Shown here: piece after piece, positions 4,793 to 26,571 of the stretch
Position numbering within the stretch: the stretch's first letter is position 1
How the letters are laid out: each line of letters opens with the position of its first letter
Assembly (NCBI GenBank): GCA_030833725.1
Contig: JAURGP010000002.1
Location: forward strand, 6,773 to 70,772
Direction of reading: 5' to 3'
DNA length: 64,000 bases
Origin: Candidatus Kapaibacterium sp.
GTDB taxonomy: Bacteria > Bacteroidota > Ignavibacteria > Kapaibacteriales > Kapaibacteriaceae
Notes under the pieces: generated by a model
What the model saw: only the letters and a program-made list of their open reading frames with translations
Told to the model about the DNA's origin: nothing
Database searches by the model: none
Translations under genes and position numbers: made by a program

Positions 4793-4933
4793 TCAAGTAC
4801 GCTGAGACGTACGCTTCTTTCTACAGGCATCGGAGCAATACCTCACCTCGTGCCACACCTTCTCCCATTTCTTGCGCCACGTGAATGGTCGGTTACACAC
4901 AGTGCACACTTTTGTAGGTAGATGTGCCTTCAA
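4793..4933 (-). CDS. DUF2256-family small Cys-rich protein (46 aa; below ORF-track cutoff)
   Basis: Manual translation (TTG)[39 protein letters not shown] matches the DUF2256 pattern. TTG start overlaps the upstream TGA (TTGA). Confidence 0.85.
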
Positions 4934-7862: not shown

Positions 7863-7880
7863 GACGAGGCCGGGAAAACC
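7863..7880. repeat. Half copy of the palindromic repeat
   Basis: GACGAGGCCGGGAAAACC is a 17/18 match to the left arm GACGACGCCGGGAAAACC; intergenic between divergent genes. Confidence 0.55.
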
Positions 7881-7981
7881 ACCAGGGCGGAATGCACAAG
7901 GAGGGCTGTGCGTTTCATATCTTTTCTCGTTGTCGGAAAATAAAAATAGGCGTCCGAACCTTCCTTGATTCTGTACCGCCC

Positions 7982-8470
7982 ATGAAACACATCGCCCTGG
8001 TTCTATTGGTGATTTTCAGTAGTTCTGCTGCAGTTAGTCAAGCACCGGATTCACTACGGCAGGACGGAGTGTATGCTGGCGTGCGCGTAGGATTGCCGTT
8101 TCTCTTTGGCCTGCGCGTCCGATACATCGGCGTTACCGATCATGATGGTCAACAGCGCCCCTTGTTCTATGCAGATGCCGATGCTGCAACTTCGATTCTC
8201 ATCAATTCAGTGAACCTAGGCGGCGGTTGGTTTCCCTTCGATGATACCTGGTACGTTGGTGCGAAGTATCACTTTCTTACCACTCCGCTCACGGATGAAC
8301 CAACAGACTGGAAGGCTCTCATCAGCGGTGAGGTCGGAGCACGCATTCCGATCGATCGCGCCTGCAATTGGCTGTTTACGATCGATGCCGGCCCGATCTA
8401 CAATCCTGGAGGCGAATCGGTGAAGGTGCTGTTCAACACTACGCTGGGTGTAGTCGGACGGTTGTACTAG
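7982..8470 (+). CDS. Small outer-membrane beta-barrel-like exported protein
   Basis: Signal peptide MKHIALV...; alternating amphipathic beta pattern; C-terminal aromatic residue. Confidence 0.6.
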   Translation: MKHIALVLLVIFSSSAAVSQAPDSLRQDGVYAGVRVGLPFLFGLRVRYIGVTDHDGQQRPLFYADADAATSILINSVNLGGGWFPFDDTWYVGAKYHFLTTPLTDEPTDWKALISGEVGARIPIDRACNWLFTIDAGPIYNPGGESVKVLFNTTLGVVGRLY

Positions 8471-8518
8471 GTTGTACTAGGGTTAAGAGGTTTTTCAAAA
8501 ACATCTGGAGTGTCGTAG

Positions 8519-8998
8519 ATGGAGCGGTATCGTTTTGCACTTAAGTGGGGTGTGATCTTCACAGCCATGGGGCTTCTGTGGATGCTCTTGGAGCGGTTGC
8601 TGGGACTACACGATGAGCGCATCGAGATGCATGCCTGGGCAACGAACCTGATTCTCTTCCCTGCCGTGCTCGTGTACGTCCTAGCACTGCGCGAGAAGAA
8701 GCGGATCGCCTACGGTGGAACAATGACCTACAAGCAGGGCTTCCTAGCTGGCGTGGGGATTACCGCAGTTGTAACACTGCTCACGCCGTTGTCTCAGTTG
8801 ATCACGTCGCTGGTGATCACGCCGGACTACTTCAGCAACATGATTGCCTACAGTGTGAACCACGGCATGCTCACACAGACCGAAGCCGAGGAGTACTTCA
8901 GTCTGTCGAACTACCTGTTGCAGAGTACGGTATTCGCACCAATTGCTGGTGTCGTGACGTCGGCAATTGTAGCGGTGTTTGTGCGGTCGAAGGGGTGA
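8519..8998 (+). CDS. DUF4199-family membrane protein
   Basis: Four TM segments; YGGTMTYKQGF...ITPDYF pattern. Confidence 0.75.
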   Translation: MERYRFALKWGVIFTAMGLLWMLLERLLGLHDERIEMHAWATNLILFPAVLVYVLALREKKRIAYGGTMTYKQGFLAGVGITAVVTLLTPLSQLITSLVITPDYFSNMIAYSVNHGMLTQTEAEEYFSLSNYLLQSTVFAPIAGVVTSAIVAVFVRSKG

Positions 8999-9001
8999 CG
9001 T

Positions 9002-10831: not shown

Positions 10832-10843
10832 GTTCCAACTGTC

Positions 10844-11443: not shown

Positions 11444-11452
11444 ACGGTTCCG

Positions 11453-13507
11453 TTATTTTATTGGACTTAGCACCACCACGCCGGGAAAAGGTTTTCCCGG
11501 CGTGGTCGGCGTCGTCTGAACCACAAAGTACACACTCCGACCACTCACCAACACCTCCTCGCAGTGCTCCGAGCCTGTCACGACCCAACGCTTCACGAGG
11601 GTTCCATCATAGGCAAAGAGGGCAATCGTCTCTCCAGGCCACACACCGCGAACGCACACTCGGTTACCCTGCCACGATGCCGTGAACGACGGTGCTACAC
11701 GCTCTTCCACGTCCGTTGGAGCGAACTGAAAGGGTTCGCTCTCCGACGCACAGTTGCCGAATTGCCTGCTGCGCGTCACTACGCGGTAGGCCGCTGCTTT
11801 TGTTGGCACGTACCACGGCCGGTTCCAGCCTGTTATGGGCACATTACCAACAAACCACTGATAGCTGTCTGCCAGCGGCGATGCCCATAGTGTGTCGGCG
11901 CGCAGCGATAGTGAGGTGGTAGGGGGCTCGTAGTTACGCAGGGTGAAGCGCACTGGTCCAACTGTGAGTACGCAACCATTCTCGGCGTCAGGCAAAATCT
12001 CTGCAGTGATAGAGTATGTGCCGGGTTGTGCAATGGCAATCACCTCGTTGGTATCACCCGTACTCCACGCAACAGTGTTGTAGCCAGGCCCATCCACCTG
12101 AACGGACAACCGCAAGCCCCCTTCCCCATTACACAGAACGGTGTCTCCTGCTACGTTTACCCGCGCTGAAGGCACCGGAACTTGCGTCACCACAATCGAG
12201 TCTACCACCTCTCCACATCCTTTTGTGCTCCGGGCAATGGCACGGTACACTCCAGGAGTACTCACCGTAATCTCTGCAGTAGTTGCACCAGTCGACCACT
12301 CGACAGTGGCATCTGCACTGGCAGCTGCACGGAGTGTTACCGTATCACCTGGACATATCGCAGACGGTCCAATCATTTGCAATTCCGGGGGGCGTGCCCA
12401 CGCTATGATGGTGTCCACCACATCACCGTCAAAGCATGTTGTGTTCACCAAGGCGATCACATTTTCACGCTCCTTGATGACGTATCGATACGTCGTGCCA
12501 CGCACACTGTCGGGCAACCACATCACCGATGCTACCGGCCCGTTGTACGTCAGAACAATCGTGTCGCCTACGCATCCAACTGTGGTACTCATGCGGATGT
12601 CGCTACTGGCGAGTATCCGCATGGTTGTCTGCATCTGCGTCGTGCCTATGGCAGACATCGCACGATTGTCTCGGTTGAGGATGTGATTCACATAGGCAAA
12701 CGTGGTGGCAAACTGCTGAGCACGATCAATCGTACCGGGACACGTGAACTCACCGATGGAGCAGAGTGTATTCTGGTCTGCAAACTGACAGTGACTGCCG
12801 CCGGGAATCACGCCCAGTGCCTTGCACGTTGCCGCTACGGCGTTGTACATCGGTTGAATGGTTGTAAGGGGCGTCACGCAGTCCTCGCTTCCGGCAAGGA
12901 TCAACGTGGGGCAGGTTACCGAAGCCGCAGCAGCTGTTGCACTGGGATTTGTTTCGGCTGGTGCCAAGGCGATCACGCTGGCGAGATTCCAATCCGTGTT
13001 GTCAAGGATGGTTTTGGCTGCAAGAAACGAGGAGCCCCCTCCCATCGAGTGACCGATCAGGACGTAGTCATCACGAATCGCACCCTGCCAGCGTGAGCCT
13101 GCACGCGTGTTCTCTTGCCTGATCCATGCAAGACAGGCAACGATGTCATCGGCATACTCTGCATGATCTGGAAACAATCCGGAACCCGTTTCAGGAAGGA
13201 TGGCAATAAAGCCAGCGGAATTCTTGCAGACCTCCGTTGCCAATGAAGTGTAGGCCCCTACCGGTAGTTGGTATCCATGAGCGATGACTGCAACACCAAA
13301 GTTTTCAGTGGAGCCTGTCGTGGATCCCTGCAATGGCGCATCGGTGCCACCAGGTGCCTCGGCAGGATAGATGATGGTGACGGCGATGGATGCACCGCGA
13401 GCTGCATCCTGAAAGGTAAGGCGTGTACGACCCTCGTAGTAGGCTGCAGAAACAGTCTGGGCAACGGTGCATAGAATACCCACACACAACAGAAGAGTTA
13501 GCTTCAT
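11453..13507 (-). CDS. Secreted alpha/beta hydrolase (chlorophyllase/cutinase-like) with Ig-like repeats and T9SS-like CTD
   Basis: Signal peptide MKLTLLL; HGY oxyanion region, GHSMGGG nucleophile elbow, GSEDCV (Asp), GGSHCQF (His); WSTG repeats. Confidence 0.8.
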   Translation of the reverse strand: MKLTLLLCVGILCTVAQTVSAAYYEGRTRLTFQDAARGASIAVTIIYPAEAPGGTDAPLQGSTTGSTENFGVAVIAHGYQLPVGAYTSLATEVCKNSAGFIAILPETGSGLFPDHAEYADDIVACLAWIRQENTRAGSRWQGAIRDDYVLIGHSMGGGSSFLAAKTILDNTDWNLASVIALAPAETNPSATAAAASVTCPTLILAGSEDCVTPLTTIQPMYNAVAATCKALGVIPGGSHCQFADQNTLCSIGEFTCPGTIDRAQQFATTFAYVNHILNRDNRAMSAIGTTQMQTTMRILASSDIRMSTTVGCVGDTIVLTYNGPVASVMWLPDSVRGTTYRYVIKERENVIALVNTTCFDGDVVDTIIAWARPPELQMIGPSAICPGDTVTLRAAASADATVEWSTGATTAEITVSTPGVYRAIARSTKGCGEVVDSIVVTQVPVPSARVNVAGDTVLCNGEGGLRLSVQVDGPGYNTVAWSTGDTNEVIAIAQPGTYSITAEILPDAENGCVLTVGPVRFTLRNYEPPTTSLSLRADTLWASPLADSYQWFVGNVPITGWNRPWYVPTKAAAYRVVTRSRQFGNCASESEPFQFAPTDVEERVAPSFTASWQGNRVCVRGVWPGETIALFAYDGTLVKRWVVTGSEHCEEVLVSGRSVYFVVQTTPTTPGKPFPGVVVLSPIK
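11475..11506. repeat. Palindromic repeat copy 1 (in frame inside CDS 3' end)
   Basis: ACCACGCCGGGAAAA-GG-TTTTCCCGGCGTGGT, perfect 15-bp arms; encodes TTPGKPFPGVV. Confidence 0.95.
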
Positions 13508-13561
13508 CGCACTACCTTTGTTTCTGCGATACATCGTCCACGATACATGGTAGTGAAAATA

Positions 13562-14188
13562 ATGCACGCATTGGTCATTGGCGGTACTGGTCTTGTTGGC
13601 GTGGAACTGCTTCGACTTCTGGCGAGCGATACAGAGTTTTCACGTATTGACTCCGTGGGCCGCAGTATCGTACCCGACCTCCAGGATCGTGTTCATCAGG
13701 TAGTGATGGATCTCCTGGAGGAATCACTTCCAGCAAATGTCACGCCCGACGTTGTGTTCTGCTGCTTGGGCACAACGATTCGCACGGCTGGATCGCAAGA
13801 GGCCTTTCGCCGCGTAGACTATGAGATGCCGATGAGGATTGCCAAAGCTGCACGTACGCGTGGGGCGCAGCACTTCATTCTGGTGAGCTCGCTTGGAGCA
13901 AACCCCGCATCCCGAACGTTTTACTCCCGCATTAAGGGAGAACTGGAACGCGACCTCCAGAAGCTGGGGTATCCGTCACTGACGTTTGTCCGGCCGTCCT
14001 TGCTGTTGGGTGATCGCACTGAGCCACGGTTTGGTGAACAAGTAGCTACGCTTGTGATGCTCACGTTCCGGTTACTCATCCCACGCTCGTTGCGTGCCAT
14101 TTCAGCAACGCGCGTAGCAGCCGCAATGGTAGCCGCCGCGAAGCGGCGGCGGGTGGGGGTGGAGGTGATCGAGAATCGGGTGTTGTGA
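13562..14188 (+). CDS. NAD(P)-binding epimerase-like protein (YraR/TIP30-like)
   Basis: IGGTGLVG, CCLGTT, FRRVDY, YSRIKGELE, RPSLLLG. Confidence 0.88.
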   Translation: MHALVIGGTGLVGVELLRLLASDTEFSRIDSVGRSIVPDLQDRVHQVVMDLLEESLPANVTPDVVFCCLGTTIRTAGSQEAFRRVDYEMPMRIAKAARTRGAQHFILVSSLGANPASRTFYSRIKGELERDLQKLGYPSLTFVRPSLLLGDRTEPRFGEQVATLVMLTFRLLIPRSLRAISATRVAAAMVAAAKRRRVGVEVIENRVL

Positions 14189-14191
14189 CAG

Positions 14192-14217
14192 ACGCCGGGA
14201 AAAGGTTTTCCCGGCGT
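14192..14217. repeat. Palindromic repeat copy 2
   Basis: ACGCCGGGAAAAGGTTTTCCCGGCGT between convergent genes. Confidence 0.95.
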
Positions 14218-14231
14218 TGTCGATATGTCCG

Positions 14232-15359
14232 CTACGGCAACTCGTCGTACTGATACCCCAACACGGATTCATCCATGACAGCAGCTGGAGTATTGAGTCC
14301 GTCCATCCGGAAGTCCCAGGGCATGAGCACCTCATTCAACCCAGACATCATCTCGCCACCGGAGGCGTAGTTTTTTCCGTGCCGCTTCATCCAGCCTGAC
14401 CAGATCCGATCGATATTGGCGTGATGAATCCAGAAGACTGGATCGTTGGGCGACGTGGCTTGGCACATACTTCCTGCATAGATATTTCCGTCAGGTGCTC
14501 TCCAGATACCACCTACGTATACGTGAACGATGTTGTGTTGCGTGCTTCCACGCTCACCAGGAATACTAATTACATCCATAACTCCATTGGGATCGCATTC
14601 ATTACCTGCCGTTCCACGCCAACCCTCCAGAGAATTGCGGAAGCTGATCGTTGTATCAACAGAGCTATCCCATGGAGCACTGTCGTACGTGGGGATGCTA
14701 AGCGACCCCAATATTTCTGCACTGGTAGGTAGCAGTGCGTCGGCGTTGAGGTTCTTGCCGATTCGACGCGTCAGATATGGAACAACATTGGGACTTGTGT
14801 TGTGATCAAAGAACACCGAGTCAATATCCACTTCATCTGAAACGGTAATGATCCATGCATCCTTCTGGAAGGGGCCGGAGGTAACGGCATAGCCCTGTGA
14901 CGGATCACCATCGCCCCCTACCAATTCGTCCGAGAACAGAACCTGCTGAGCCGAGGGATCGGTCCAGTCCCAATATGGAATCGTGACATCCTTTCCACTG
15001 ACGTCGCGCAAAGCACGCTCGAACAGGTCAAGATACACGCGGTGCCATGGGAGGAAGCCGGGATTCATGTGGGCGGGAAACATGCCATCACCACCAACCG
15101 TACCTGCATCGCAGAAGAATGCGAGGTAGTGCCACTTCACGAACTGATCGTAATAATTCAGCGTGGGGTCGTATGGCGAGGGCACGGTCTTCAGCGCCTT
15201 CACTGCGGAGACGAAATCGGCTTTTTCCTCGGTTGTCATCCGGGTTACGCTCTTGCGCACACGCAGATTTGAGGGGTTCGATGGATTGGTTGACGTGCAT
15301 GCAGCGCTGAACAGAGCAACGATAGCCAGGCTGATGGCGATGTATGGTAGTGTTTTCAT
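14232..15359 (-). CDS. Tyrosinase (type-3 copper) lipoprotein
   Basis: Lipobox SAAC; CuA H...AH...FLPWHR; CuB HNIVH...SPNDPVFWIHHANID. Confidence 0.92.
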   Translation of the reverse strand: MKTLPYIAISLAIVALFSAACTSTNPSNPSNLRVRKSVTRMTTEEKADFVSAVKALKTVPSPYDPTLNYYDQFVKWHYLAFFCDAGTVGGDGMFPAHMNPGFLPWHRVYLDLFERALRDVSGKDVTIPYWDWTDPSAQQVLFSDELVGGDGDPSQGYAVTSGPFQKDAWIITVSDEVDIDSVFFDHNTSPNVVPYLTRRIGKNLNADALLPTSAEILGSLSIPTYDSAPWDSSVDTTISFRNSLEGWRGTAGNECDPNGVMDVISIPGERGSTQHNIVHVYVGGIWRAPDGNIYAGSMCQATSPNDPVFWIHHANIDRIWSGWMKRHGKNYASGGEMMSGLNEVLMPWDFRMDGLNTPAAVMDESVLGYQYDELP

Positions 15360-15382
15360 AGGTGCGATGATACGACAATGTA

Positions 15383-15441
15383 ACGACGCCGGGAAAACCT
15401 TTTCCCGGCGTGGTGCCGGGAAAAGGTTTTCCCGGCGTCGT
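15383..15441. repeat. Palindromic repeat copy 3 (inverted doublet)
   Basis: A CC-loop unit followed by a GG-loop unit; together a perfect 27-bp inverted repeat around GTGGT; between divergent genes. Confidence 0.95.
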
Positions 15442-15504
15442 CAACTTCCCGATGTTTGCCACAGCAAAACGTTCACCCCTTCACCCCCAACCACCTATAA
15501 CACC

Positions 15505-17331: not shown

Positions 17332-17852
17332 TCAGACTTTTCTGGACAAATGTTGCACTCCTGATAGCGCTAGCTGTTGCGGCTGGCGCTGCAGTGCATA
17401 CGCCCCGTTCCATTGACTCCCTGCCTGTCGTGTATGGTGCTGATTCTTCCGCAATCGACCTTCTGGCAGCATCGGACACAACAACCGTCGTTGCCGTCCG
17501 ACATCTTGGTGCGATCTGCTCCCACTGCGTGGAGCAGATCATCCTGCTGAACGAGTACGCCAATGAGTTTCGTCGGAGAAATGCACGTGTGATTGCCTTC
17601 TCTATGGACGACGTTGATGAGTGCCAACTGGCAGCAAAGGAGCATGCCATCGACACCGATGTTCTGCAGCTCTGCTACGATGAGCGCGATGCGTGTTCTC
17701 GTGCAGTGGGTAGCACGATCCAGGAGATTGATGGATCGTTTACCGATCTCCACGCCGTGCTCGTGATCCGAAAGCGCATCGTGGTGTTTGAGCACTACTC
17801 TACGCAGCCGTTGATGTCGCTGGGTGGTGTTTTTGAGGTGCTGGGTGAGTGA
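17328..17852 (+). CDS. Redoxin (AhpC/TSA-like, thioredoxin fold) CxxC protein
   Basis: CSHC motif, VIAFSMD; ATGA overlap with the oxidase stop. Confidence 0.72.
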   Translation: MIRLFWTNVALLIALAVAAGAAVHTPRSIDSLPVVYGADSSAIDLLAASDTTTVVAVRHLGAICSHCVEQIILLNEYANEFRRRNARVIAFSMDDVDECQLAAKEHAIDTDVLQLCYDERDACSRAVGSTIQEIDGSFTDLHAVLVIRKRIVVFEHYSTQPLMSLGGVFEVLGE

Positions 17853-17873
17853 CGCCGAGGGCGACGGAGGACC

Positions 17874-17899
17874 ACGCCGGGAAAAGGTTTTCCCGGCGT
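17874..17899. repeat. Palindromic repeat copy 4
   Basis: ACGCCGGGAAAAGGTTTTCCCGGCGT between the redoxin and YHYH genes. Confidence 0.95.
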
Positions 17900-17958
17900 C
17901 GTGTAACTAACAGTCTGTTCACATAGTCCCCGCACGAGTTATCACATAGGAGAGCCGA

Positions 17959-19338
17959 ATGAGACGCGTCATTGCTACACTGCTTCTGGCTGCCAGTCCA
18001 GTACTTCACTACGCGCAAACCAACCCAGCGATTACATCGTGGTTGATTAACACAACTGGGGCAAAGGGTCGACACTACGTGCAGGGTAATCCTGCACCGA
18101 TTGCAGATACCATGCTTGCCAATGTGATGCTGGTGCGGTATTCGGAGGCATATAGCTATGTGAATTGCAACGGTATCCCTTCCTACGTGATTGGACCATA
18201 TCCCGACGGCAATCCGGCTACTGCGGTTGGACGGAACTATCTCTTCAAGATCCCGCTGGATCCTCAGCCAAACACCGGAACCAAAACGGCTGTCGGGTTA
18301 GGCCACATTGCAGTACTCGTCAACGGTGTGCCAGTGTACAACTACGCTGACGCGCGCTCGTACAACAACCAGAATATTTGGCACCAGAACGCCGTGTTCT
18401 TTGAGCGGATTGGATTCGACTGCTCGAAGGGTCATCCTGCACCTTTGCGTACGGGTCCTCCAGGTATGGGAGGGGGCTCGGCAGATGGTCAGTATCATCA
18501 TCACCAAGATCCCTCGGCCTTCAACGTTGCCAAGGTTGTGATGTCGGACATTTGCGATATGTACCTCGCTGATGGTCTGTACGTCCCAGATAGCACACAG
18601 CATGGCCCCCTGATTGGATTCGCCTTTGATGGCTATCCGATCTATGCTGCCTATGGATGGGCTGATGGCACTCAATCTGTTCGACGGATCACGTCCAGCT
18701 ATCAAATCCGCTCCATCGGCGAGCGAACAACACTTCCGGACGGCACAGTGCTGTCGACGTCACAGTATGGTCCTGCCCTATCGCAGTATCCACTTGGCGC
18801 CTACGCCGAGGACTACGAGTACCTTGCTGGTTCTGGTGACCTCGACGAGCATAACGGCAGGTTCTGCATCACGCCGGAGTATCCCGGTGGTACGTATGCC
18901 TACTTTGCGACGATCGATGAAGACGGTAATTCGGTGTACCCATATGTGATCGGGCCCACATACTACGGCGTAGTAGAGCAGTCGAATTTTGCTGGTACTG
19001 GCCCTGGAGCGGCTCCAACTCGGGTAACGATCACTGAACCAGTAACTCGCTACCTCCCCGGCGTGACCTCTGTTCGAGACGTAGAGAATGCCATTACTCC
19101 TACGGTGTTCCCAAATCCGGCCATGGACGTCATCATCGTACAAGTGCGGCAACCTCTTCAGGCTGATGCCACCGTCAGCATGTACGACCTACGAGGAGTC
19201 CTTGTCCGATCATCACGCATTCACTCCGGCAGCACGATGTGCTACGTGGATGTGGAGACACTGTACGCAGGCACGTACATCGTCCATGTTGAAACCCATG
19301 GTGTTGTACGGTCGTATCCAGTCATTCTTGGAGAGTGA
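17959..19338 (+). CDS. YHYH-domain protein with T9SS C-terminal domain
   Basis: VNGVP, GQYHHHQ, HGPLIGFAFDGYPIY, DLDEHNGR...GTYAYF; CTD VFPNPA. Confidence 0.85.
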   Translation: MRRVIATLLLAASPVLHYAQTNPAITSWLINTTGAKGRHYVQGNPAPIADTMLANVMLVRYSEAYSYVNCNGIPSYVIGPYPDGNPATAVGRNYLFKIPLDPQPNTGTKTAVGLGHIAVLVNGVPVYNYADARSYNNQNIWHQNAVFFERIGFDCSKGHPAPLRTGPPGMGGGSADGQYHHHQDPSAFNVAKVVMSDICDMYLADGLYVPDSTQHGPLIGFAFDGYPIYAAYGWADGTQSVRRITSSYQIRSIGERTTLPDGTVLSTSQYGPALSQYPLGAYAEDYEYLAGSGDLDEHNGRFCITPEYPGGTYAYFATIDEDGNSVYPYVIGPTYYGVVEQSNFAGTGPGAAPTRVTITEPVTRYLPGVTSVRDVENAITPTVFPNPAMDVIIVQVRQPLQADATVSMYDLRGVLVRSSRIHSGSTMCYVDVETLYAGTYIVHVETHGVVRSYPVILGE

Positions 19339-19341
19339 TCG

Positions 19342-19932
19342 GTGCTGGAGGTCCTTCTCTCGATTGTGTTTGTCGTCCACTCTACGGGAAATGGTGGGCA
19401 ATACACCTTGGAGCGCGCTCAGTGGTATGTTGGGAACGTTGAACTCCATGCCATCGACGGGAGTTCGTATCGCATCGCAGGCTACTACCTCCTAGATACC
19501 GACGATCCACAATCACTCAGGCTAGAGCTGCCAGAGCTTCTGCCTCACGCAGACTATCGGTCCTTGAGCTTCACTCTTGGGGTAGACAGCCTTGATAATC
19601 ACGGTGGACCGCGGGAGGGGGCTCTCGATCCAATGCACGGCATGTACTGGACCTGGTCGACAGGGTACATCTTCCTGAAGATTGAAGGTACGGCTTCGGC
19701 GTCGCCTCAGCCCAAGAAACGTATCGAGTACCACCTTGGGGGTTTTAGAGCCCCCTACAACAATATCCGTCGCGTACACTGTGCGATGACGAGCGGACAG
19801 GAAGCCCGCATCGTGGTAGATGTTGATGCGTTCATGCGCACGATTAATGTTGCCCAGACTCCAGGCGTCATGGATGTACGTTCATCTGCCGATCTGATTG
19901 ATCAGGCAGTGGAGATGTTCCGTGCACCATAA
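19342..19932 (+). CDS. MbnP-family copper-binding protein
   Basis: FTLGVDS...GALDP..GMYWTWSTGYIFLKIEG (WxW motif), YHLGG; directly upstream of a di-heme enzyme. Confidence 0.82.
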   Translation: MLEVLLSIVFVVHSTGNGGQYTLERAQWYVGNVELHAIDGSSYRIAGYYLLDTDDPQSLRLELPELLPHADYRSLSFTLGVDSLDNHGGPREGALDPMHGMYWTWSTGYIFLKIEGTASASPQPKKRIEYHLGGFRAPYNNIRRVHCAMTSGQEARIVVDVDAFMRTINVAQTPGVMDVRSSADLIDQAVEMFRAP

Positions 19933-20890
19933 GATTGTGGTTATCTGTATGCTGGTTGTAGCGATCGCTACAACGGTAGTGCAGAGTGGAAATCATGGTG
20001 AGCAGGACGAAGCAGTCGTTGCCCTTGGAAGACGACTGTTCTACGATCCCGTGCTTTCTGTAGATCAAACTACCAGCTGTGGTACGTGTCATCAGCAGTT
20101 TGCAGCGTTTGCGCATGTAGACCACGCGCTGAGTCACGGAGTGTACGGACGTATCGGTACCCGTAACGTACCGGCACTGCAGAATCTTGCATCTCGCCGT
20201 GGTTTCATGTGGGACGGTGCGATTGAGCACCTGGACATGCAGGCGTTAAGCCCCCTAACCAGTCACGCTGAAATGGGCGAAACCCTACCACGCATCCTAG
20301 AGAAGCTTGACAGTGTGGGATGGTGCCGAACCCTGATGACGCAGGCCTATGGTAGTCCAGACATTACGATCCCGCGAGTGCTGCGTGCATTGGGTCGATT
20401 CGTGGCTACGTTGGAGAGTCGTTCTTCTCGGTTCGACCGTTGGCATGCAGGGCAGGACACGTTAGCTGAGAACGAGAGACGAGGGTATGATCTTTTCCGA
20501 GCATACTGCGCATCATGCCACAATGGTATCGACTTCACCGATGATTCCTTTCGCAGCAATGGTCTGCCGCTGGATTCACTCTTGATGGATCACGGACGCG
20601 AGCGAGTAACGCTGGACGAGCAGGATCGGTACCGGTTCAAAGTGCCATCACTTCGAAACGTGGGGCGCACAATGCCCTATATGCATGATGGTCGGTTCAA
20701 GCGTCTTCGAGATGTACTTGCCCATTATGCGCAGCAAGACGATCTCGCCGACCATGCTGATCCGTTGGTGCGATCAATTGCACCACTGGATGACCGTGCC
20801 CGCAAGGATCTGATCGCCTTTCTGCTCACGCTGACTGATGAGGCATTTCTTCGGGATACAGCGTTCGGCGAGAAGGAGGTATGGGAGTAA
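19922..20890 (+). CDS. MbnH/MauG-like di-heme cytochrome c peroxidase family protein
   Basis: CGTCH and CASCH, FMWDG, FKVPSLRNV..TMPYMHDG; start codon uncertain (GTG 19922 chosen). Confidence 0.88.
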   Translation: MHHKIVVICMLVVAIATTVVQSGNHGEQDEAVVALGRRLFYDPVLSVDQTTSCGTCHQQFAAFAHVDHALSHGVYGRIGTRNVPALQNLASRRGFMWDGAIEHLDMQALSPLTSHAEMGETLPRILEKLDSVGWCRTLMTQAYGSPDITIPRVLRALGRFVATLESRSSRFDRWHAGQDTLAENERRGYDLFRAYCASCHNGIDFTDDSFRSNGLPLDSLLMDHGRERVTLDEQDRYRFKVPSLRNVGRTMPYMHDGRFKRLRDVLAHYAQQDDLADHADPLVRSIAPLDDRARKDLIAFLLTLTDEAFLRDTAFGEKEVWE

Positions 20891-20901
20891 GGACGACGTA
20901 A

Positions 20902-20937
20902 GGACCACGCCGGGAAAACCTTTTCCCGGCGTCGTCC
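20902..20937. repeat. Palindromic repeat copy 5
   Basis: GGACCACGCCGGGAAAA-CC-TTTTCCCGGCGTCGTCC between convergent genes. Confidence 0.95.
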
Positions 20938-20943
20938 GCAATT

Positions 20944-22119
20944 TCACCGATCCAGCGTCCCCATCACAATGCCAAACACATTCAATACACTGAGCTGCCC
21001 GTAGTTACCCGGCGTAAACGCTGGGCCACGTGCGAAGAAGACGCCGTGCATCTCGAGATGCGAGTTGTGGTGTCCATGATCTCCGCCTCCCCGAAACGGC
21101 CTGCCCTTTCTCACGAAGAAGCATCCAGGTCTGGTCATCAGGATGGCCGCAGGTGCTCTACCAGAAGCATCCATGTGGAGATCGGATAACGAATCGTCGG
21201 GCGCATACACATCAACCCACGATACGCGCTCGGCAATACTGCGCTGGAGACTATCAATGTTGGGAGGGGGCTGACGGTAGAGGTACACCAGATTCCCGGA
21301 TCCAATGATGCGGAAACCTGTTGTGTCCATCACAGATTCAAGTTCAATGCTGCATGACTCTTGCAAAGCAGTCATGCCGTGGTCGCTGACAACGATGATA
21401 TTCGTCGACTCCAGCATACCTCGCAACGCAAGCTCAGTTTCAAGGCGCACCAGAAGGTCTCCAGCAACACTCAACCCCTCGGAGATATTCGGAGAGTCTG
21501 GTCCTTCTCGATGACCGATGTCATCCAGTACTTCGAAGTACATCGTAGCTACCCGCGGAGGTGTAGGGCCATCGATCCACGACAGTAAGGAGTCAATTCG
21601 CTCATGGTAGTTGCGCGAAGGCTCGTACGGCAACCAGTGCGTAGGACGGTCACCAGAAAATGCCGTTTCGGATCCTGGCCAGAAGGCACACGCTGCCGTA
21701 AGCCCCCTACGCTCAGCTTCGATCCACAGCGGCGTGCCCCGCCACCATGCGGACTCTTTACGCTGCATCGTGAAGACGTCGTTGAGGGTGGAGTCGTAGA
21801 AGCTGTTGCCGACGATGCCGTTGTCGCGTGGGTACGCTCCGGTAGCAATTGCCCAATGGTTGGGAAACGTCTTGGTGGGGTTTACCGGCTTCAGACTCGA
21901 TGCTCGATAGCATTTGTTGAGGTAGGCAACGAAGCCTGGATGCGTGATTCGGTTGAGGTAGTCGTGGCGGAAGCCGTCGAAGGAGATCAGGATGGTAAGG
22001 GGCTTGCCGGGAGTGACGCCGGGAAAACCTTTTCCCGGCGTCGTCCCCCATAACGTCCCCAACGCAAAGGCGCTGATGAAGAACATCATCAGCGCCTTGG
22101 AGATCGAACTCTGTGTCAT
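20944..22119 (-). CDS. Nucleotide pyrophosphatase/phosphodiesterase (alkaline phosphatase superfamily)
   Basis: LISFDGFR, TKTFPNH (Thr nucleophile), DDIGH, VSDHGM, GDHG; carries an in-frame repeat insertion after the signal peptide. Confidence 0.92.
   Translation of the reverse strand: MTQSSISKALMMFFISAFALGTLWGTTPGKGFPGVTPGKPLTILISFDGFRHDYLNRITHPGFVAYLNKCYRASSLKPVNPTKTFPNHWAIATGAYPRDNGIVGNSFYDSTLNDVFTMQRKESAWWRGTPLWIEAERRGLTAACAFWPGSETAFSGDRPTHWLPYEPSRNYHERIDSLLSWIDGPTPPRVATMYFEVLDDIGHREGPDSPNISEGLSVAGDLLVRLETELALRGMLESTNIIVVSDHGMTALQESCSIELESVMDTTGFRIIGSGNLVYLYRQPPPNIDSLQRSIAERVSWVDVYAPDDSLSDLHMDASGRAPAAILMTRPGCFFVRKGRPFRGGGDHGHHNSHLEMHGVFFARGPAFTPGNYGQLSVLNVFGIVMGTLDR
22004..22044. repeat. 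Palindromic repeat copy 6 (in frame inside CDS)
   Basis: TTGCCGGGAGT-GACGCCGGGAAAACCTTTTCCCGGCGTCGTC; encodes TTPGKGFPGVTPGK. Confidence 0.95.
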
Positions 22120-22126
22120 AGGAAGA

Positions 22127-22368
22127 TTAGAACGTGTAGCGAATACCCACCTGCACCTGCCAACGCGAAGCTAAGTCGCTAAATCCAAACGGATCGCGCT
22201 TGTCCGTGTAGCTGCAGATCGGTGTGCCCACAGCAACTGGGCTGTCCGCACACGTCCCCAATCGGAGTTGAGCCTGCTCAGGAAGGTGATGAAGTCCCCG
22301 GAGATGTCTAGGCGGTGACCCTTGACGAATGGGTTTGGTAGCTCCTGCATCTGGCGCAGGTCCAGCTG
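22127..22368 (-). pseudogene. 3' remnant of an Oar-like TonB-dependent receptor (frameshifted)
   Basis: One frame gives QLDLRQMQELPNPFVKGHRLDISGDFITFLSRLNSDWGRV; another frame ends SDLASRWQVQVGIRYTF*. Both resemble Oar-type TBDR C-termini. No start codon; truncated at the repeat. Confidence 0.72.
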
Positions 22369-22373
22369 GGGCC

Positions 22374-22424
22374 GACGACGCCTTTCCCGGCGTGGTGCCG
22401 GGAAAAGGTTTTCCCGGCGTCGTC
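22374..22424. repeat. Palindromic repeat copy 7 (doublet with 10-nt deletion)
   Basis: Same layout as copy 3 but GGGAAAACCT is missing from the left unit. Confidence 0.92.
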
Positions 22425-22448
22425 CTCAAAAAACGCTTTGATATAACC

Positions 22449-22548
22449 GGGAACTTTCGCAAATAAGGCTTGCGTTAAACCAAAGCAAACCGAAAATATG
22501 CACTTGAACCCCCTTCTCGGGGGAACTTTCACCCTAGTCGCTTGGTTG
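22449..22548 (+). promoter_or_regulatory. Two tandem ECF-sigma-like promoters upstream of the rhodopsin gene
   Basis: GGGAACTTTC at 22449 and 22521; GGAACTT is followed after 16 nt by CGTT and GTT respectively. Confidence 0.4.
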
Positions 22549-22591
22549 TCAGCCACATCACTTTTTTCATTCACCTCTGTTAGGACGTGCT

Positions 22592-23380
22592 ATGGGGACA
22601 GAGTCTACGATGATCGCTTTGGGTAGCGATGGATACATGTTGGTGTTCAACATGTTCTCGTTCACGATTGCCGCAATGCTTTCGGCCTTCGTGTTTTTCA
22701 TTTTGCGGCGTTCAGCCGTTGCACCGCAGTATCGCATGTCGCTGGTGGTGTCGTCGTTGGTAGTGGGCATTGCTGCCTATCACTACATTCGGATTTTCGA
22801 TAGCTGGAACCATGCATACGACATGGCTACCGGTATGTATAACCCTGCGTTGTTCAACGACGCATATCGCTACGTGGACTGGCTCCTGACTGTTCCTCTG
22901 CTTCTTGTTGAGTTGATCCTTGTGTTGAATCTTGGCCGAGACAAGTCCGGTCCTCTGTTGACCAACCTGTCGATTGCCGCTGTACTGATGATTGCCCTCG
23001 GCTATCCAGGCGAAGTCATGAGTGCTACGGCAAAGACGTCTATGATGTCCGAGTACGGCATGTGGGGCTTCTTGTCGACCATTCCTTTCGCCTACATCCT
23101 GTTTGTCCTATGGGGCAAGCTGGGCTCGGCTATGGAATCACAGCCTGAGCGCGTACGCGTATTGTTCCGCAACCTCCGACTCCTTCTGATCGCTACATGG
23201 GGTTTCTACCCAATCGTGTACTGCCTGCCTTATTTCGGTATGGACATTGCCTCGTCGATCGTCTCGATCCAGACGGGCTATGCCATCGCTGACGTTCTGG
23301 CTAAGGCTGGCTATGGTGTAATGATCTACGCCATCGCTCGCGAGAAGTCGGCGGCCGACGGATGGCGCGAAGCTGCGTAA
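22592..23380 (+). CDS. Microbial rhodopsin, xanthorhodopsin-type DTE proton pump
   Basis: Seven TM segments; AYHY, RYVDWLLTVPLLLVE (D-T-E), LGYPGE, WGFLSTIPF, TWGFYP, DVLAK (retinal Lys). Alternative start at 22610. Confidence 0.95.
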   Translation: MGTESTMIALGSDGYMLVFNMFSFTIAAMLSAFVFFILRRSAVAPQYRMSLVVSSLVVGIAAYHYIRIFDSWNHAYDMATGMYNPALFNDAYRYVDWLLTVPLLLVELILVLNLGRDKSGPLLTNLSIAAVLMIALGYPGEVMSATAKTSMMSEYGMWGFLSTIPFAYILFVLWGKLGSAMESQPERVRVLFRNLRLLLIATWGFYPIVYCLPYFGMDIASSIVSIQTGYAIADVLAKAGYGVMIYAIAREKSAADGWREAA

Positions 23381-23410
23381 GCGTCGTACATAACAACACG
23401 TCAAACGCAC

Positions 23411-23445
23411 AAAGGTGGCAGTACGATGTACTGCCACCTTTTCTG
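23411..23445 (+). terminator. Rho-independent terminator of the rhodopsin gene
   Basis: AAAGGTGGCAGTAC-GAT-GTACTGCCACCTTT followed by a T-rich tail. Confidence 0.85.
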
Positions 23446-23457
23446 TTTCCGAGTCTG

Positions 23458-23500
23458 TTGCCGGGAGTGGCGCCGGGAAAACCTTTTCCCGGCGCCATTC
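23458..23500. repeat. Palindromic repeat copy 8 (compensatory variant)
   Basis: TTGCCGGGAGTGGCGCCGGGAAAA-CC-TTTTCCCGGCGCCATTC; an A-T pair of the consensus is replaced by G-C. Confidence 0.93.
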
Positions 23501-23553
23501 TTCTGTACATTTGTCACCTAGGTACGACCATCTATTCAATCCCCGAGAATTCC

Positions 23554-23907
23554 ATGTCAATACGTTTTCTTCGCACCATTGCTAGCGTGCTGCTTTTGTC
23601 GTTTGTCATGATCAGCTGCTCAAGCACAACCATGATCACGTCAGAGCCTCCTGGTGCAAAGCTGTACATCAATGGTATGAGTGTTGGTAACACACCATAT
23701 ACGCATTCTGATACGCGTATCGTTGGCTCAATGCTGATGATCAAGCTCGAGAAGGAGGGGTATGAGCCCCTTAACACCTTCATCACACGTGACGAACGCG
23801 TAGACGTTGGTGCAGTCATTGGTGGACTGTTCTTGCTCGTGCCATTCCTCTGGACAATGCAGTACAATCCACAGCACAACTATGAGCTCGCACCGCTGAA
23901 GAAGTAG
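23554..23907 (+). CDS. PEGA-domain lipoprotein
   Basis: Lipobox MISC; ITSEPPGAKLYING...GNTP...LEKEGYE. Confidence 0.82.
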   Translation: MSIRFLRTIASVLLLSFVMISCSSTTMITSEPPGAKLYINGMSVGNTPYTHSDTRIVGSMLMIKLEKEGYEPLNTFITRDERVDVGAVIGGLFLLVPFLWTMQYNPQHNYELAPLKK

Positions 23908-23916
23908 TAAACGGTA

Positions 23917-23954
23917 GACGCCGGGAGTGACGCCGGGAAAAGGTTTTCCCGGCG
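23917..23954. repeat. Palindromic repeat copy 9
   Basis: GACGCCGGGAGT plus core GG-loop palindrome, between convergent genes. Confidence 0.93.
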
Positions 23955-23966
23955 CGGTTCTACATC

Positions 23967-25190
23967 CTACTCTGCTCGGTACCCATTCACCGGGTCGAAC
24001 GTCCCAATCACCACCCATGTGGGCTGGCCGTTAACCATACGGATGCCCATCATGTTGTAGATGCCATTCTTGCGGTCACCGGCGGCATTGAATGTGGCGT
24101 CTCCCGAGATGCCCTGATAGTTCTCCGCTCTGGCTACGATGCCGGTACGCAGCGCATCTGCCGTTGCAGCGTTTCCGAGCTCAAGAATCGTGTTTCCTAC
24201 AAGCGTTACGGCATCGTAGGTGCTCAGAGCAAACGCATCTGGTGTGAGTCCAGTTTGTTGCTCGATCGTGGCAATCACCGGCTGAGCACGCTCCACTGCA
24301 TCCCCGATCCCAACGTTTGGACAGGCATAGCCAACCTGCTCGAAGAACTCTGCCTGAGCCAGCAAGGCCGCACTCTCTACAGTGCCATCGCCTCCGTACC
24401 AGCGAACGCCACGCAGCAGGGTGTCGGTTACCGGGATAGCAGCTGCAAGCTGCGCTGCCTCGTCAAAAGCAGGGTTGTAGACTGCAACCTTGTCAATTCC
24501 GTAGATGCCTACGGCGATTCCTACTTCTGTGCGTAGTTGCTCGACGACTGCAGTAAAGTCGGTAGTGGTTACTGCATACTCAAAGCCCCCTACCACATCC
24601 CCACCGTTGGCCTTCATATCGGCACGCACACTGGATGCGAGACCTCGATTACCAATGTCGTCGCGCGCAACGGAAACCACGATGTTGCGGCCTTCAGCGC
24701 GCATCATTGCGGCGATAGCAGGGCCCTCCTGCTGATCGCTGGGACACATGCGAAGGAGGTTGTCGTTCTCGATCGCCAGGGCACCAGCCGTACTCGAGGG
24801 ACTGACAACAATCACCTCCTGTGCATTAGCCGTGGAGAGAATCGCGGAGGCCTCTGCGCTGGATTGGGGTCCGATGACAACCCGTACACCATTGGAAATC
24901 GCGTCGGTAAGGGACGTTTGCGCGCGGTTGGCTTCAAGCTTGGTGTCGTACAAACGCCACATAAAGCGCTTGCTTGAGCCTTGGGCTTCAAGCTTGGAGT
25001 TCAGATCATTGATGGCAATCCGGGCAGCTGCGTCGGCTGTAGTGCCTAGCGTATTCCAGGACCCCGTGATTGACAGCAGGCCTCCGATTTCCGGGAAGTC
25101 GTCGTCGCCATTGGGGTTTGTTGGCGTTGTGGAAGAGGCGCAGGCGCTGAGGAGAGCTGCCGTGGCGAGAAGAAGAAGGGTGTGTTTCAT
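23967..25190 (-). CDS. Branched-chain amino acid ABC substrate-binding-like lipoprotein (type I periplasmic binding fold)
   Basis: Lipobox LSAC; IGGLLSITG, VIGPQSS, SPSSTA, YDAV, GISG...FNAAGDR. Confidence 0.85.
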   Translation of the reverse strand: MKHTLLLLATAALLSACASSTTPTNPNGDDDFPEIGGLLSITGSWNTLGTTADAAARIAINDLNSKLEAQGSSKRFMWRLYDTKLEANRAQTSLTDAISNGVRVVIGPQSSAEASAILSTANAQEVIVVSPSSTAGALAIENDNLLRMCPSDQQEGPAIAAMMRAEGRNIVVSVARDDIGNRGLASSVRADMKANGGDVVGGFEYAVTTTDFTAVVEQLRTEVGIAVGIYGIDKVAVYNPAFDEAAQLAAAIPVTDTLLRGVRWYGGDGTVESAALLAQAEFFEQVGYACPNVGIGDAVERAQPVIATIEQQTGLTPDAFALSTYDAVTLVGNTILELGNAATADALRTGIVARAENYQGISGDATFNAAGDRKNGIYNMMGIRMVNGQPTWVVIGTFDPVNGYRAE

Positions 25191-25195
25191 GGGGG

Positions 25196-25203
25196 CGAAG
25201 ATA
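25196..25203 (-). promoter_or_regulatory. Bacteroidota-type -7 promoter element (TATCTTCG)
   Basis: 5 nt upstream of the ATG at 25190. Confidence 0.45.
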
Positions 25204-25204
25204 C

Positions 25205-25269
25205 ACGCCGGGAATGACGCCGGGAAAAGGTTTTCCCGGCGTCACTCCCGGCAAACCTTTTCCCGGCGT
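25205..25269. repeat. Palindromic repeat copy 10 (composite 12+27+27 nt)
   Basis: ACGCCGGGAATG-ACGCCGGGAAAAGGTTTTCCCGGCGTC-ACTCCCGGCAAACCTTTTCCCGGCGT between divergent genes. Confidence 0.95.
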
Positions 25270-25286
25270 GGTGCGTTTACCCAGCC

Positions 25287-26546
25287 ATGCGCACCATCAT
25301 CACCACCCCCCTCCCCGTCCTCCTGACCTACCTCCTCATTGCCACGGCATCAGTGACCACCGGCACCACCACGGTCCACGCCCAGCAATACTTTCCGCCG
25401 GTGGACTCCGACAGCTGGGAAGAAGTTTCCCTCCAGGAACTCGGCTGGTGTCAGGACCATCTCGACACGCTCCTGAAACACGTTGAGAGCACCAACAGCA
25501 AGGCCTTCATCGTCCTCAAGGACGGACGCATCGCCATCGAGTGGTACGCCGATGGCTTCACCCACACCGACAACTGGTACTGGGCTTCAGCCGGAAAGAC
25601 CGTTACCGCCACATTGGTAGGCATTCTGCAGAGCAGGGGCCTCATCGACATCACACAACCCACATCGCGCTACATCGGTCAGGGGTGGTCGTCCCTCATA
25701 CCCGACCAGGAGCTTGCCATTACCGTGTGGCATCAGCTCACGATGACCTCCGGCCTCGATGACGGCGTTGCCGACCCCTACTGCACGGACGATACCTGCT
25801 TGGTGTACAAGGCCGATCCCGGCACGCGCTGGGCCTACCACAACGCGCCGTACACCCTCCTTGATCAGGTAGTGCAAGGGGCTAGCCAGTCCACCTTGAA
25901 TCAGGTGTATCGATCACAACTCGCCCAGCGCATTGGCATGAACGGTGGCTTTCTCCCGCAGGGCTACAACAACGTGCTGTTCTCCACCCCTCGCTCGATG
26001 GCGCGCTTCGGGTTGCTGGCTCTGAACAACTTCGTCTGGGATTCGGATTCGATCCTTGCCGACCCGACGTATGCGCGCACTATGGTGACCCGCTCGCAGG
26101 AGCTGAATCAGTCGTACGGCTATCTGTGGTGGCTGAATGGTCAGCCTACGCATATGGTGCCCATCCTGCGGCGCGTCTTCCAAGGTCCCCTCACACCAAA
26201 CGCCCCACCTGACGTGTACTACGCTCTAGGTAAAAACGACCAGATCATCAGCGTCTGCCCGAGTGAGCGCCTCGTCTTCATTCGCATGGGTGATGCGGCG
26301 TCCAACGAACCTGGCGACGTTGCCATCGGCTCGGCCGACGAGATCTGGAAGCTGCTGCGCAAGGTGATGTGCTCCACAACCAGTGTTTATGGCAGTGTGG
26401 ATGGCAGGGGGCTTCCGGCAGAGGACAACGAGCAGGTGTTCGACGCCTATGATCTGTTAGGACGGTTCGTTGGGACGGTAAACGGTCGTGAGGAAGCGGT
26501 TTGGCTGAGTGGACGAGGTCCGTTGCTGATACGACGCCGGGAGTGA
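25287..26546 (+). CDS. Serine hydrolase (beta-lactamase/class C-like) with short T9SS-like tail
   Basis: SAGK (SxxK), LTMTSGL, YHN, YGYLWW; YDLLGR tail; stop codon lies within repeat copy 11. Confidence 0.87.
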   Translation: MRTIITTPLPVLLTYLLIATASVTTGTTTVHAQQYFPPVDSDSWEEVSLQELGWCQDHLDTLLKHVESTNSKAFIVLKDGRIAIEWYADGFTHTDNWYWASAGKTVTATLVGILQSRGLIDITQPTSRYIGQGWSSLIPDQELAITVWHQLTMTSGLDDGVADPYCTDDTCLVYKADPGTRWAYHNAPYTLLDQVVQGASQSTLNQVYRSQLAQRIGMNGGFLPQGYNNVLFSTPRSMARFGLLALNNFVWDSDSILADPTYARTMVTRSQELNQSYGYLWWLNGQPTHMVPILRRVFQGPLTPNAPPDVYYALGKNDQIISVCPSERLVFIRMGDAASNEPGDVAIGSADEIWKLLRKVMCSTTSVYGSVDGRGLPAEDNEQVFDAYDLLGRFVGTVNGREEAVWLSGRGPLLIRRRE

Positions 26547-26571
26547 CGCCGGGAAAACCTTTTCCCGGCGT
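26531..26571. repeat. Palindromic repeat copy 11 (provides stop codon)
   Basis: ACGACGCCGGGAGTGACGCCGGGAAAACCTTTTCCCGGCGT; TGA at 26544-26546. Confidence 0.95.

Follow-up and report, generated by a model that had tools for sequence, protein, structure and literature searches.

A regionally confined palindromic repeat in a Candidatus Kapaibacterium genome is probably an orphaned REP family with a putative cognate transposase in a sister species

Introduction

When a short palindrome recurs between the genes of one genomic region and no transposase lies nearby, it must be asked what kind of element it is, what might have spread it and whether it marks the borders of mobile genes. This question is raised by a stretch of 64,000 nucleotides from Candidatus Kapaibacterium sp., corresponding to C21:6773-70772 of the source genome G000 (92 contigs, 1,979,185 bases, 98.4% complete) and referred to here, at its full length, as the window. 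A first-pass annotation had described a locally confined family of palindromes resembling repetitive extragenic palindromes (REPs), and had proposed that they might be an undescribed element lacking a known mobiliser and delimiting single-gene cassettes in an accessory island. Here we show where the repeat occurs and how it is built, and describe the transposase gene that accompanies it in a congener. In our judgement the repeats are, with good likelihood, a REP family with some doublets of the REPIN type (REP doublets forming hairpins), whose cognate REP-associated tyrosine transposase (RAYT) is retained in a sister species and whose copies in G000 have been orphaned.

Results

The repeat family is confined to three stretches of the genome

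To map the repeat, we used the 26-mer ACGCCGGGAAAASSTTTTCCCGGCGT as query (pattern form ACGCCGGGAAAA-SS-TTTTCCCGGCGT), allowing up to three mismatches. The window contains 13 matches, starting at 11478, 14192, 15386, 15413, 17874, 20907, 22016, 22395, 23470, 23930, 25217, 25244 and 26546, compared to 0.00 expected from 100 dinucleotide-preserving shuffles, none of which contained any. All copies fall within 11478-26571 and the same search found none past 26571, in agreement with the earlier statement that the DNA from 26.6 to 64 kb is free of them. The 11 loci listed previously are all present, with coordinates displaced by 0-21 nt; the loci are real, but two of them (15386/15413 and 25217/25244) are doublets that had each been counted once. 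A half copy reported at 7863 corresponds to the 12-mer GCCGGGAAAACC at 7869-7880, which reached 5.9 bits in a whole-genome profile search and is unsupported as a family member because its E-value there was 31.

Across the whole assembly, 23 cores (matches to the 26-mer) were found at 20 loci, which are confined to C21 4129-33341, C10 136459-149975 and C27 15609-15653, together 2.2% of the 1.98 Mb assembly. When 20 loci were placed at random, none of 100,000 trials fell within three 30 kb windows. The local confinement seen in the window thus holds genome-wide, and mapping the 26-mer, as had been suggested, revealed three stretches and not an even spread. Searching the whole genome with an nhmmer profile of the copies (--max) added nothing at E < 0.01 save a half copy at C10 144923. 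The palindromes of 22-26 nt are identical among copies, and 19 of the 20 loci are intergenic or overlap a gene end alone. Together, these data support the reading as a REP-like family of miniature palindromes.

Matches elsewhere did not extend the family. A single copy of the 22-mer is present in each of 30 further metagenome contigs (e.g. L048:3134-3155), which represent one unrelated locus of another organism with the conserved flanks gtaagatgtgc ... atcttgagc; those with a source in their name are human-gut assemblies. These contigs, one contig with a GC centre and single hits in a Pseudoxanthomonas and a Thalassomonas genome were all attributed to chance identity of a short palindrome.

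Singlets and doublets are built from a 12-nt half-site unit

The family is built from 12-nt half-site units, (G/C)AC-GCCGGGA-NN. The 26-mer consists of two such units in inverted orientation and is often preceded by one or more further direct units, and two 26-mers placed 27 nt apart, with centres CC then GG, form a doublet. On single-stranded DNA (ssDNA) a singlet folds at -19.4 kcal/mol (z -6.2), and a doublet becomes a single 27-bp hairpin at -39.2 kcal/mol (z -13). Singlets make up 17 of the 20 loci in G000; the other architecture, the doublet, is found at three, as opposed to 13 of 29 loci in the congener G005. The linker between direct units reads GTGAC in five of 11 cases in G000 and GAGTT in 29 of 41 cases in G005, and these species-specific linkers imply that the copies were homogenised within each lineage, after the split. 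The count of 12-nt units also differs between strains, and Logan contigs assembled from public runs show indels of 12-13 nt at the flanks of the repeats.

A flip-flop inversion of the centre, with GG or CC independent of the outer units, was considered as a sign of hairpin processing. It was set aside because the loss of 27 nt from a CC-GG doublet is enough to produce either centre, and because all nine same-species contigs show one and the same orientation. The family was also rejected as a miniature inverted-repeat transposable element, in which terminal inverted repeats enclose an internal segment, typically of over 100 nt, and target-site duplications occur; the elements here are 22-61 nt long and composed of half-site units only, with no flanking duplication at the 20 loci.

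A RAYT gene lies amid the same repeat in a congener

Of 40 relatives, G005 is the single genome that carries the repeat (41 cores); the other 39 have none. An open reading frame (ORF) of G005, C28:9683-10276, encodes a 197-aa protein, P0001, with a Pfam Y1_Tnp match of 57.7 bits at C28:9719-10048 and a score of 84.9 bits against the NCBIfam equivalog NF047646, "REP-associated tyrosine transposase" (cut-off 80). Upstream, 85 nt separate its start codon from a CC-GG doublet of the repeat, and a half-site is located 25 nt past its stop, running into a 100-N scaffold gap. The notion of an undescribed element without a known mobiliser is therefore not supported. A REP family with its own RAYT, which the first-pass annotation had set against its proposal, is what we found in G005, though not in the window's own genome.

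Several lines of evidence characterise the enzyme. In an alignment of 11 RAYT sequences, H60 and H62 of the HUH motif and Y120 are invariant. The profile built from this alignment had a sole match in the PDB, the E. coli TnpA-REP structure 4ER8 (E 1.4e-7), in which Y120 corresponds to residue 115 of the chain, which we take to be the catalytic tyrosine. A single-sequence search of the PDB with P0001 returned nothing at E <= 0.01, and a protein atlas search gave generic Y1_Tnp clusters only, uninformative on taxonomy or grouping. Homologues of P0001 are present in 43 of 151 sampled genomes of the order, in 19 of 39 of the family and in seven of 10 members of the genus (39-55% identity in the genus), and proteins 97%, 79% and 73% identical to it occur on short public contigs, the one at 79% being labelled Candidatus Kapaibacteriota by one source.

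The association is found in other relatives as well. A CCGGG-type half-site palindrome is present within ~120 nt of the gene at eight of 11 RAYT loci (L087-L097; of the remaining three, two showed no palindrome and one was examined by a strict criterion only), and such a palindrome also flanks one of three RAYT loci in G001. The flanking palindrome differs from species to species. In G003, ATCCGGGAT-N5-ATCCCGGAT forms a 55-nt perfect doublet upstream of the RAYT gene with a nested copy downstream, and has 26 copies in the genome; in G123, 18 of the 20 copies of a local palindrome lie within 138 kb round the RAYT gene of a 3.5 Mb genome. Palindrome-flanked RAYT genes of this kind are the signature of REP/REPIN-RAYT systems, and they suggest that low copy number and regional clustering are traits of this RAYT clade, not of the window alone. 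From these associations we infer that a RAYT of the G005 type moves the repeat.

The copies in the source genome are probably orphaned

The source genome holds repeats and no RAYT gene, so the copies are most likely orphaned and no longer moving; our preferred reading is of a REP/REPIN population that has lost its enzyme and is probably in decay. The earlier observation that the window contains no transposase was confirmed by a Pfam scan, which found no integrase, recombinase or transposase domain in the 20 + 40 ORFs of the three repeat-bearing stretches of G000. The enzyme appears to have been lost rather than left unassembled. The slot occupied by the RAYT gene in G005 is fully assembled in G000 and filled by other genes, and no contig of the assembly terminates in a REP. 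Moreover, none of 39 repeat-holding metagenome contigs encodes a RAYT, including eight that are >=99.3% identical to G000 and come from this species.

The competing view, that the species carries its cognate RAYT on a short contig flanked by repeats and missed in assembly or binning, and that the population is active, has a real but minor chance of being correct. G000 is a draft of 92 contigs, and REP-associated 100-N gaps break the RAYT neighbourhood of G005. Any of the P0001-like proteins on short contigs (97%, 79% and 73%) could belong to the species, and the GTGAC linker specific to G000 implies homogenisation after the split from G005. The complete slot, the contig ends and the RAYT-free metagenome contigs described above speak against this view, as does the predominance of singlets.

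Under the mechanism that we propose, REPs would be non-autonomous hairpins that a RAYT of the HUH/Y1 type recognises on ssDNA, cuts and re-joins. The cognate enzyme would have been retained among the copies in G005 and be missing from G000, where the orphaned copies might decay from doublet to singlet through 27-nt and 12-nt slippage between direct repeats. Copies in flexible regions would tolerate every type of junction, even one in-frame site, and REPs that are identical across species may offer short homology for gene loss, gain or exchange.

A number of observations weigh against the interpretation as an orphaned REP family. The 5' GTAG tag of classical REPs is absent, the flanks reading (G/C)AC ... 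GT(C/G)GT, and a copy number of 22 with strict regional clustering is unlike the dispersed classical families; the standard REP model does not by itself explain the confinement. In G000, tblastn with P0001 gave a best E of 4.1 and the profile of the RAYT clade (A1) matched none of eight scored candidates, so that the link to the enzyme is drawn through a different species. A small repeat-flanked RAYT contig could have been lost from a 92-contig draft. No movement was seen: nine same-species contigs (eight from metagenomes and one from a genome collection, 97-99.8% identical to G000) keep every copy where it lies in G000 with its orientation unchanged, and a filled versus empty site for the repeat alone was not found among them. 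Finally, the decay of doublets is a route suggested by the architecture of the repeats.

Two further ORFs of the source genome resemble transposases of this kind. One, cut by the contig end (C41 1-594(-), L008), resembles a RAYT with an HIHVL motif but reaches 27.9 bits against NF047646, below the cut-off; tandem repeats reading as RARYIAPLP-like peptides stand ahead of it, and it is a member of another repeat/transposase family that has no relation to the REPs. The other is a Y1_Tnp-like ORF at C12 16635-17120(-) (L006 1267-1752), with a counterpart at the same place in C2 of G005 (L007). Both are 160-162 aa long, score 24-26 bits and are not flanked by the repeat, and the C12 ORF falls outside the P0001 clade. 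Their neighbours are conserved, namely an ORF of 390-430 aa and one of ~390 aa, the latter presumably an aminomethyltransferase. This Y1_Tnp-like ORF may be a domesticated relative.

The repeats occupy every type of gene junction

The repeat loci of the window and their gene context are listed in Table 1. Over the whole genome, seven of the 20 loci lie at convergent, six at tandem and six at divergent junctions, and one lies in frame inside a gene, according to our own reading of the ORFs together with Pfam hits. It was therefore correct that the copies sit at all three types of junction alike.

Table 1. Repeat loci of the window, with their architecture, gene context and counterpart in G005 (positions within the window)
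Position	Architecture (centre)	Gene context	Further observations
11478..11503	REP singlet (GG)	Last codons of ORF 11453-13567(-), alpha/beta hydrolase; tandem junction, upstream of OmdA/DUF1801 gene	Fold -19.4 kcal/mol, z -6.2
14192..14217	REP singlet (GG)	Convergent: NAD-epimerase-like gene 13547-14188(+) / tyrosinase 14232-15359(-)	Junction also REP-occupied in G005
15386..15438	REP doublet (CC then GG, 27 nt apart), REPIN-like	Divergent spacer, tyrosinase / multicopper oxidase	One 27-bp hairpin, -39.2 kcal/mol, z -13; doublet at same junction in G005
17874..17899	REP singlet (GG)	Redoxin-like gene 17328-17852(+) / YHYH gene 17959-19338(+)	Left edge of module missing at this place in G005
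20907..20932	REP singlet (CC)	Convergent: MbnH-like di-haem peroxidase 19898-20890(+) / phosphodiesterase 20944-22119(-)	Junction is the position of the RAYT gene in G005
22006..22039	Outer half-site + REP singlet (CC)	In frame inside phosphodiesterase gene	Encodes linker TTPGKGFPGVTPGKP between signal-peptide-like N-terminus and catalytic domain; doublet at equivalent position of the G005 phosphodiesterase ORF
22385..22418	Truncated doublet (right half-site, then full GG copy)	Divergent spacer, phosphodiesterase / rhodopsin	Matching place in G005 has no REP but a 3.3 kb TonB-dependent-receptor gene
23460..23493	Outer half-site + REP singlet (CC)	79 nt past rhodopsin stop	Rhodopsin gene's own terminator-like hairpin at 23411-23441, 19 nt before REP
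23920..23953	Outer half-site + REP singlet (GG)	Convergent: PEGA-domain ORF / periplasmic binding protein 23967-25190(-)	
25207..25267	Composite: outer half-site, full GG copy, degenerate second copy	Divergent spacer, binding protein / beta-lactamase family	One population contig without a 12-nt unit (at 25205)
26536..26569	Outer half-site + REP singlet (CC)	Overlaps stop of beta-lactamase-family gene	Last copy; right edge of variable island; SSF symporter gene 26772-28403(-) beyond

This distribution bears on the possibility that the hairpins primarily serve the host, as bidirectional terminators, as mRNA-stabilising 3' hairpins or as operators at which a DNA-binding protein reads GCCGGGA half-sites spaced by 12 nt, the association with RAYT genes being secondary. 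Shared sites have 100% conserved cores between flanks of 67-82% identity, which looks like constraint, and 13 of the 20 loci come after the 3' end of one gene or more. The hairpins are strong, and the regular 12-nt spacing of half-sites would, by our own comparison, resemble that of multi-site operators. However, no T-run was seen after the stems, only one of the 11 window loci matches a simple pattern for terminators, and the number of matching sites overall (16) lies within the range of shuffled sequences (13.6, sd 4.4). The rhodopsin gene has its own terminator-like hairpin ahead of the REP, and Rfam at gathering thresholds gave no match in the whole window. We therefore do not regard termination or regulation as the primary explanation, which agrees with the previous conclusion that termination is insufficient. 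In addition, six loci lie in divergent spacers and one in frame within a gene, the neighbouring genes share no pathway, and the repeat is missing from 39 of 40 relatives, whose own variants adjoin their own RAYT genes. Overall, we regard a host function as the main cause of the repeats as very improbable.

The repeats lie in a flexible island next to a conserved block

Over ~18 kb, contig C28 of G005 runs collinear with C21 15-33 kb, though inverted relative to it, at 67-82% nucleotide identity, and nine of the 10 comparable REP junctions are occupied in both genomes, with identical 22-nt cores. In a DNA-level search for the island within the genus, only G005 was alignable, the rest being too diverged, and the islands of the other members were compared at the protein level on fetched regions. 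The block to the right of the last copy (26546-26571), from the SSF symporter gene onward, is conserved in G001, G003, G005, G006 and G007. On the island side of this block, 18 of 19 ORFs in G006 and 17 of 19 in G001 have no counterpart in G000 at E <= 1e-20, and G003 has its own REP doublet at the same island boundary. A conserved block on one side and differing genes on the other thus place the repeats in a flexible region. The proposed variable island accordingly stands, with a right edge that coincides exactly with the last copy. Freely shuffled single-gene cassettes, by contrast, are not what the comparison shows, given the ~18 kb of collinearity and the nine shared repeat sites.

The gene content of the repeat regions has some features of its own. 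A copper-related run at 14232-20890 comprises genes for a tyrosinase, a multicopper oxidase, a redoxin-like protein, a YHYH protein, MbnP and an MbnH-like di-haem peroxidase; sorting domains for type IX secretion occur in the multicopper oxidase and the YHYH protein, and the presence of such domains in the window fits a lineage related to Bacteroidota. REPs stand on both sides of the YHYH-MbnP-MbnH part, which G005 lacks at this place. The product of the rhodopsin gene (22592-23380) is 98% identical to that of G005, with only 82% identity at the DNA level. Lycopene cyclase and beta-carotene dioxygenase (Blh), both of which are needed for retinal, are encoded in the second REP cluster at C10 140046-141985, directly after a REP. 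No repeat lies between the REP at C21 6017 and that at window position 11478; this interval holds two adjacent paralogous DUF2202 genes (5748-6467 and 4930-5676), just left of a POT-family transporter gene.

On a larger scale, the synteny of G005 C34 (L012), C5 (L010, L011) and C28 (L009) with C21 and C10 suggests rearrangement between the species, with one breakpoint at the REP cluster L012 14163-14354. Taken literally, C34, C5 and C28 close into a loop of ~165 kb; C34 may be chimeric at a repeat.

Gene differences meet repeats, mostly in ways expected by chance

We then considered whether the repeats are recombination or excision sites that bound modules of one or a few genes, served either by a RAYT acting in trans on REP-gene-REP units (IS200/IS605-like, through an ssDNA circle) or by an integron-like site-specific enzyme. 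Within the collinear 18 kb, all five whole-gene differences between G000 and G005 have a REP edge in at least one genome. These are an amylase gene, found in G000 only; the PEGA ORF; a YHYH-MbnP-MbnH-redoxin module, which in G000 occupies the RAYT slot of G005; and two genes found in G005 only, encoding the 3.3 kb TonB-dependent receptor and an OYE oxidoreductase located between two doublets. The expectation that breakpoints fall at repeats thus finds its REP edges in five of five differences, but gene order is largely kept and the coincidence is not significant: REPs fill ~11 of the ~17 spacers of the stretch, so that gene-sized indels meet a REP by chance and their coincidence is weak evidence.

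Three individual cases add to these leads. First, L040, a contig of a near-identical strain (97-99% identity to C10), carries 669 nt that G000 lacks, made up of one GNAT gene and a REP cluster; G000, however, has no REP at the insertion site, which excision from REP to REP would leave. Second, the 3127-nt metagenome contig L071 contains 139102-140037 followed by 136455-138688, joining C10 140037 back to 136455 through one 43-nt REP. A 3.6 kb circle or a tandem duplication would give this order, and so would misassembly at the repeat; as the join lies in a 43-nt exact repeat, it may be an artefact. Third, a gene for an outer-membrane beta-barrel protein (OMP; C10 144088-144924) is 98.1% identical to G005 C34 15448-16283 (L012), whereas the other 24 blocks of >=300 nt shared by the two genomes are 67-82% identical. 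Its right edge falls exactly at a REP and its left edge has degenerate half-sites, and judged by this identity the gene points to a recent exchange between the species.

Against a cassette platform, genes lie on both strands, many modules comprise several genes, gene order is largely conserved with G005, and no integrase or recombinase Pfam domain occurs in the 60 ORFs of the three REP regions. The stretch is present in 20 of 24 listed public runs from nine studies (marine, estuary, aquatic and crustacean metagenomes; Logan contigs). In four populations the modules are present, and the Logan contigs of four runs break at REPs and decide nothing for or against REP-to-REP recombination. One contig of run X6 joins 14190 to 26533, with 33 letters on its shorter side; it lies within the repeat and was not counted. 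As the leads from L040, L071 and the OMP gene are each weak, we consider a cassette platform decidedly unlikely.

The broader proposal, that REPs kept identical across species only ~75-80% alike elsewhere bound modules of one to a few genes, and that the RAYT/REP system lets these be excised, inserted or exchanged between species at REP ends, is in our view unlikely. Two routes could be envisaged, a RAYT acting on REP-gene-REP circles of ssDNA, or REPs serving as portable homology. The leads towards such module exchange are the OMP gene, the strain difference of a REP cluster plus GNAT gene, the L071 junction and the swap of RAYT gene and copper module between two REPs.

Discussion

By most criteria the system described here is a REP/REPIN-RAYT system; it fails on the GTAG tag and on high, dispersed copy number. 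As in the E. coli system (4ER8) and the Pseudomonas REPINs, the repeats are short, mostly extragenic palindromes whose inverted doublets form one hairpin, and a single-copy gene of the HUH/Y1 type is flanked by repeats (in G005, G003, G123 and others). The repeat varies with the RAYT from species to species, and shared sites persist across species. Different from these systems are the absence of the GTAG tag, the 22-41 copies, the strictly regional distribution and the missing RAYT in G000, as well as the construction of each REP as a perfect 12-14 bp palindrome of 12-nt units and a host outside the Proteobacteria. The REPIN literature leads one to expect orphan populations once a RAYT is lost (10.1101/2021.07.10.451892, 10.1101/2022.05.22.493013). 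The Pseudomonas REPs are described in the passage concerned as spread like core genes, with variable regions forming "REP deserts" (PMC3390384); measured against that description, the island-bound distribution in G000 is the reverse pattern.

The resemblance to CGTC-tagged REPs, which had been noted before, is partial. GGCGTCGT follows 11 of 22 cores and thereby places a CGTC motif at one end, as in that super-family, and the outer units read on the opposite strand as CGTCACTCCCGGC, like CGTCA-TCCC heads. According to the relevant sections of PMC3733652, the super-family includes Neisseria dRS3 and Rickettsia RPE and occurs also in Bacteroidetes and Chlorobi; its members have an unpaired CGTC at one end, stems of 8-9 bp with two A-T pairs first, loops of 4-5 nt and 3-nt tails, rarely form clusters and are reported to have no associated transposase. 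The repeats studied here share none of these stem, loop and tail features: their stems measure 12-16 bp, with G+C-rich sequence at the base and the A-T pairs adjoining the loop, the tag's GTC takes part in the pairing, clustering is usual, and in relatives there is an associated RAYT.

Closer in copy number are the TIRtrons, described in the same sections as low-copy repeats round RAYT-like genes (PMC3733652), and RAYT groups 1 and 4, for which the cited part of PMC5581495 gives ~12-14 flanking 16-mers per replicon, close to the 22-41 copies found here. In both, RAYT-like genes lie amid moderately abundant inverted repeats that often form dimers or clusters; the passages on TIRtrons and on groups 1 and 4 make no mention of regional confinement round the RAYT gene such as that in G123. 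With integron attC sites the repeats have in common that palindromes lie between the genes of a variable array, and that strains can differ by one gene plus a repeat cluster. In contrast to attC sites, they are perfect palindromes and not imperfect ones with extrahelical bases, the genes lie on both strands, many spacers have no site, and gene order is largely conserved between species. A search for IntI that was limited to the three REP regions found no recombinase domain that could represent an integron integrase in their 60 ORFs.

A full-text search combining lineage names with RAYT/REP terms found no paper with both, although supplementary lists might include relatives. The uncommon traits of the family are its orphan state, its island-bound distribution and a CGTC-like tag on repeats associated with a RAYT.

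What appeared to be an element without a mobiliser is thereby resolved, as a putative mobiliser exists in the sister species. The finding also widens the range of RAYT/REP systems, adding a marine and estuarine lineage that is not part of the Proteobacteria. With nine of 10 comparable sites shared, the two species form a natural pair, with and without the RAYT, in which the fate of REPs after loss of the enzyme can be tested. The regional distribution, taken with the CGTC-like tag on a family associated with a RAYT, bears on two points of the REP literature, namely why the spread of some REP families is only local and whether a transposase serves CGTC-type repeats. If they do guide the exchange of genes, the repeats of G000 would be of wider interest for the building of flexible islands, and if modules are exchanged at REP ends, the system would be a counterpart of a cassette platform based on an HUH transposase.

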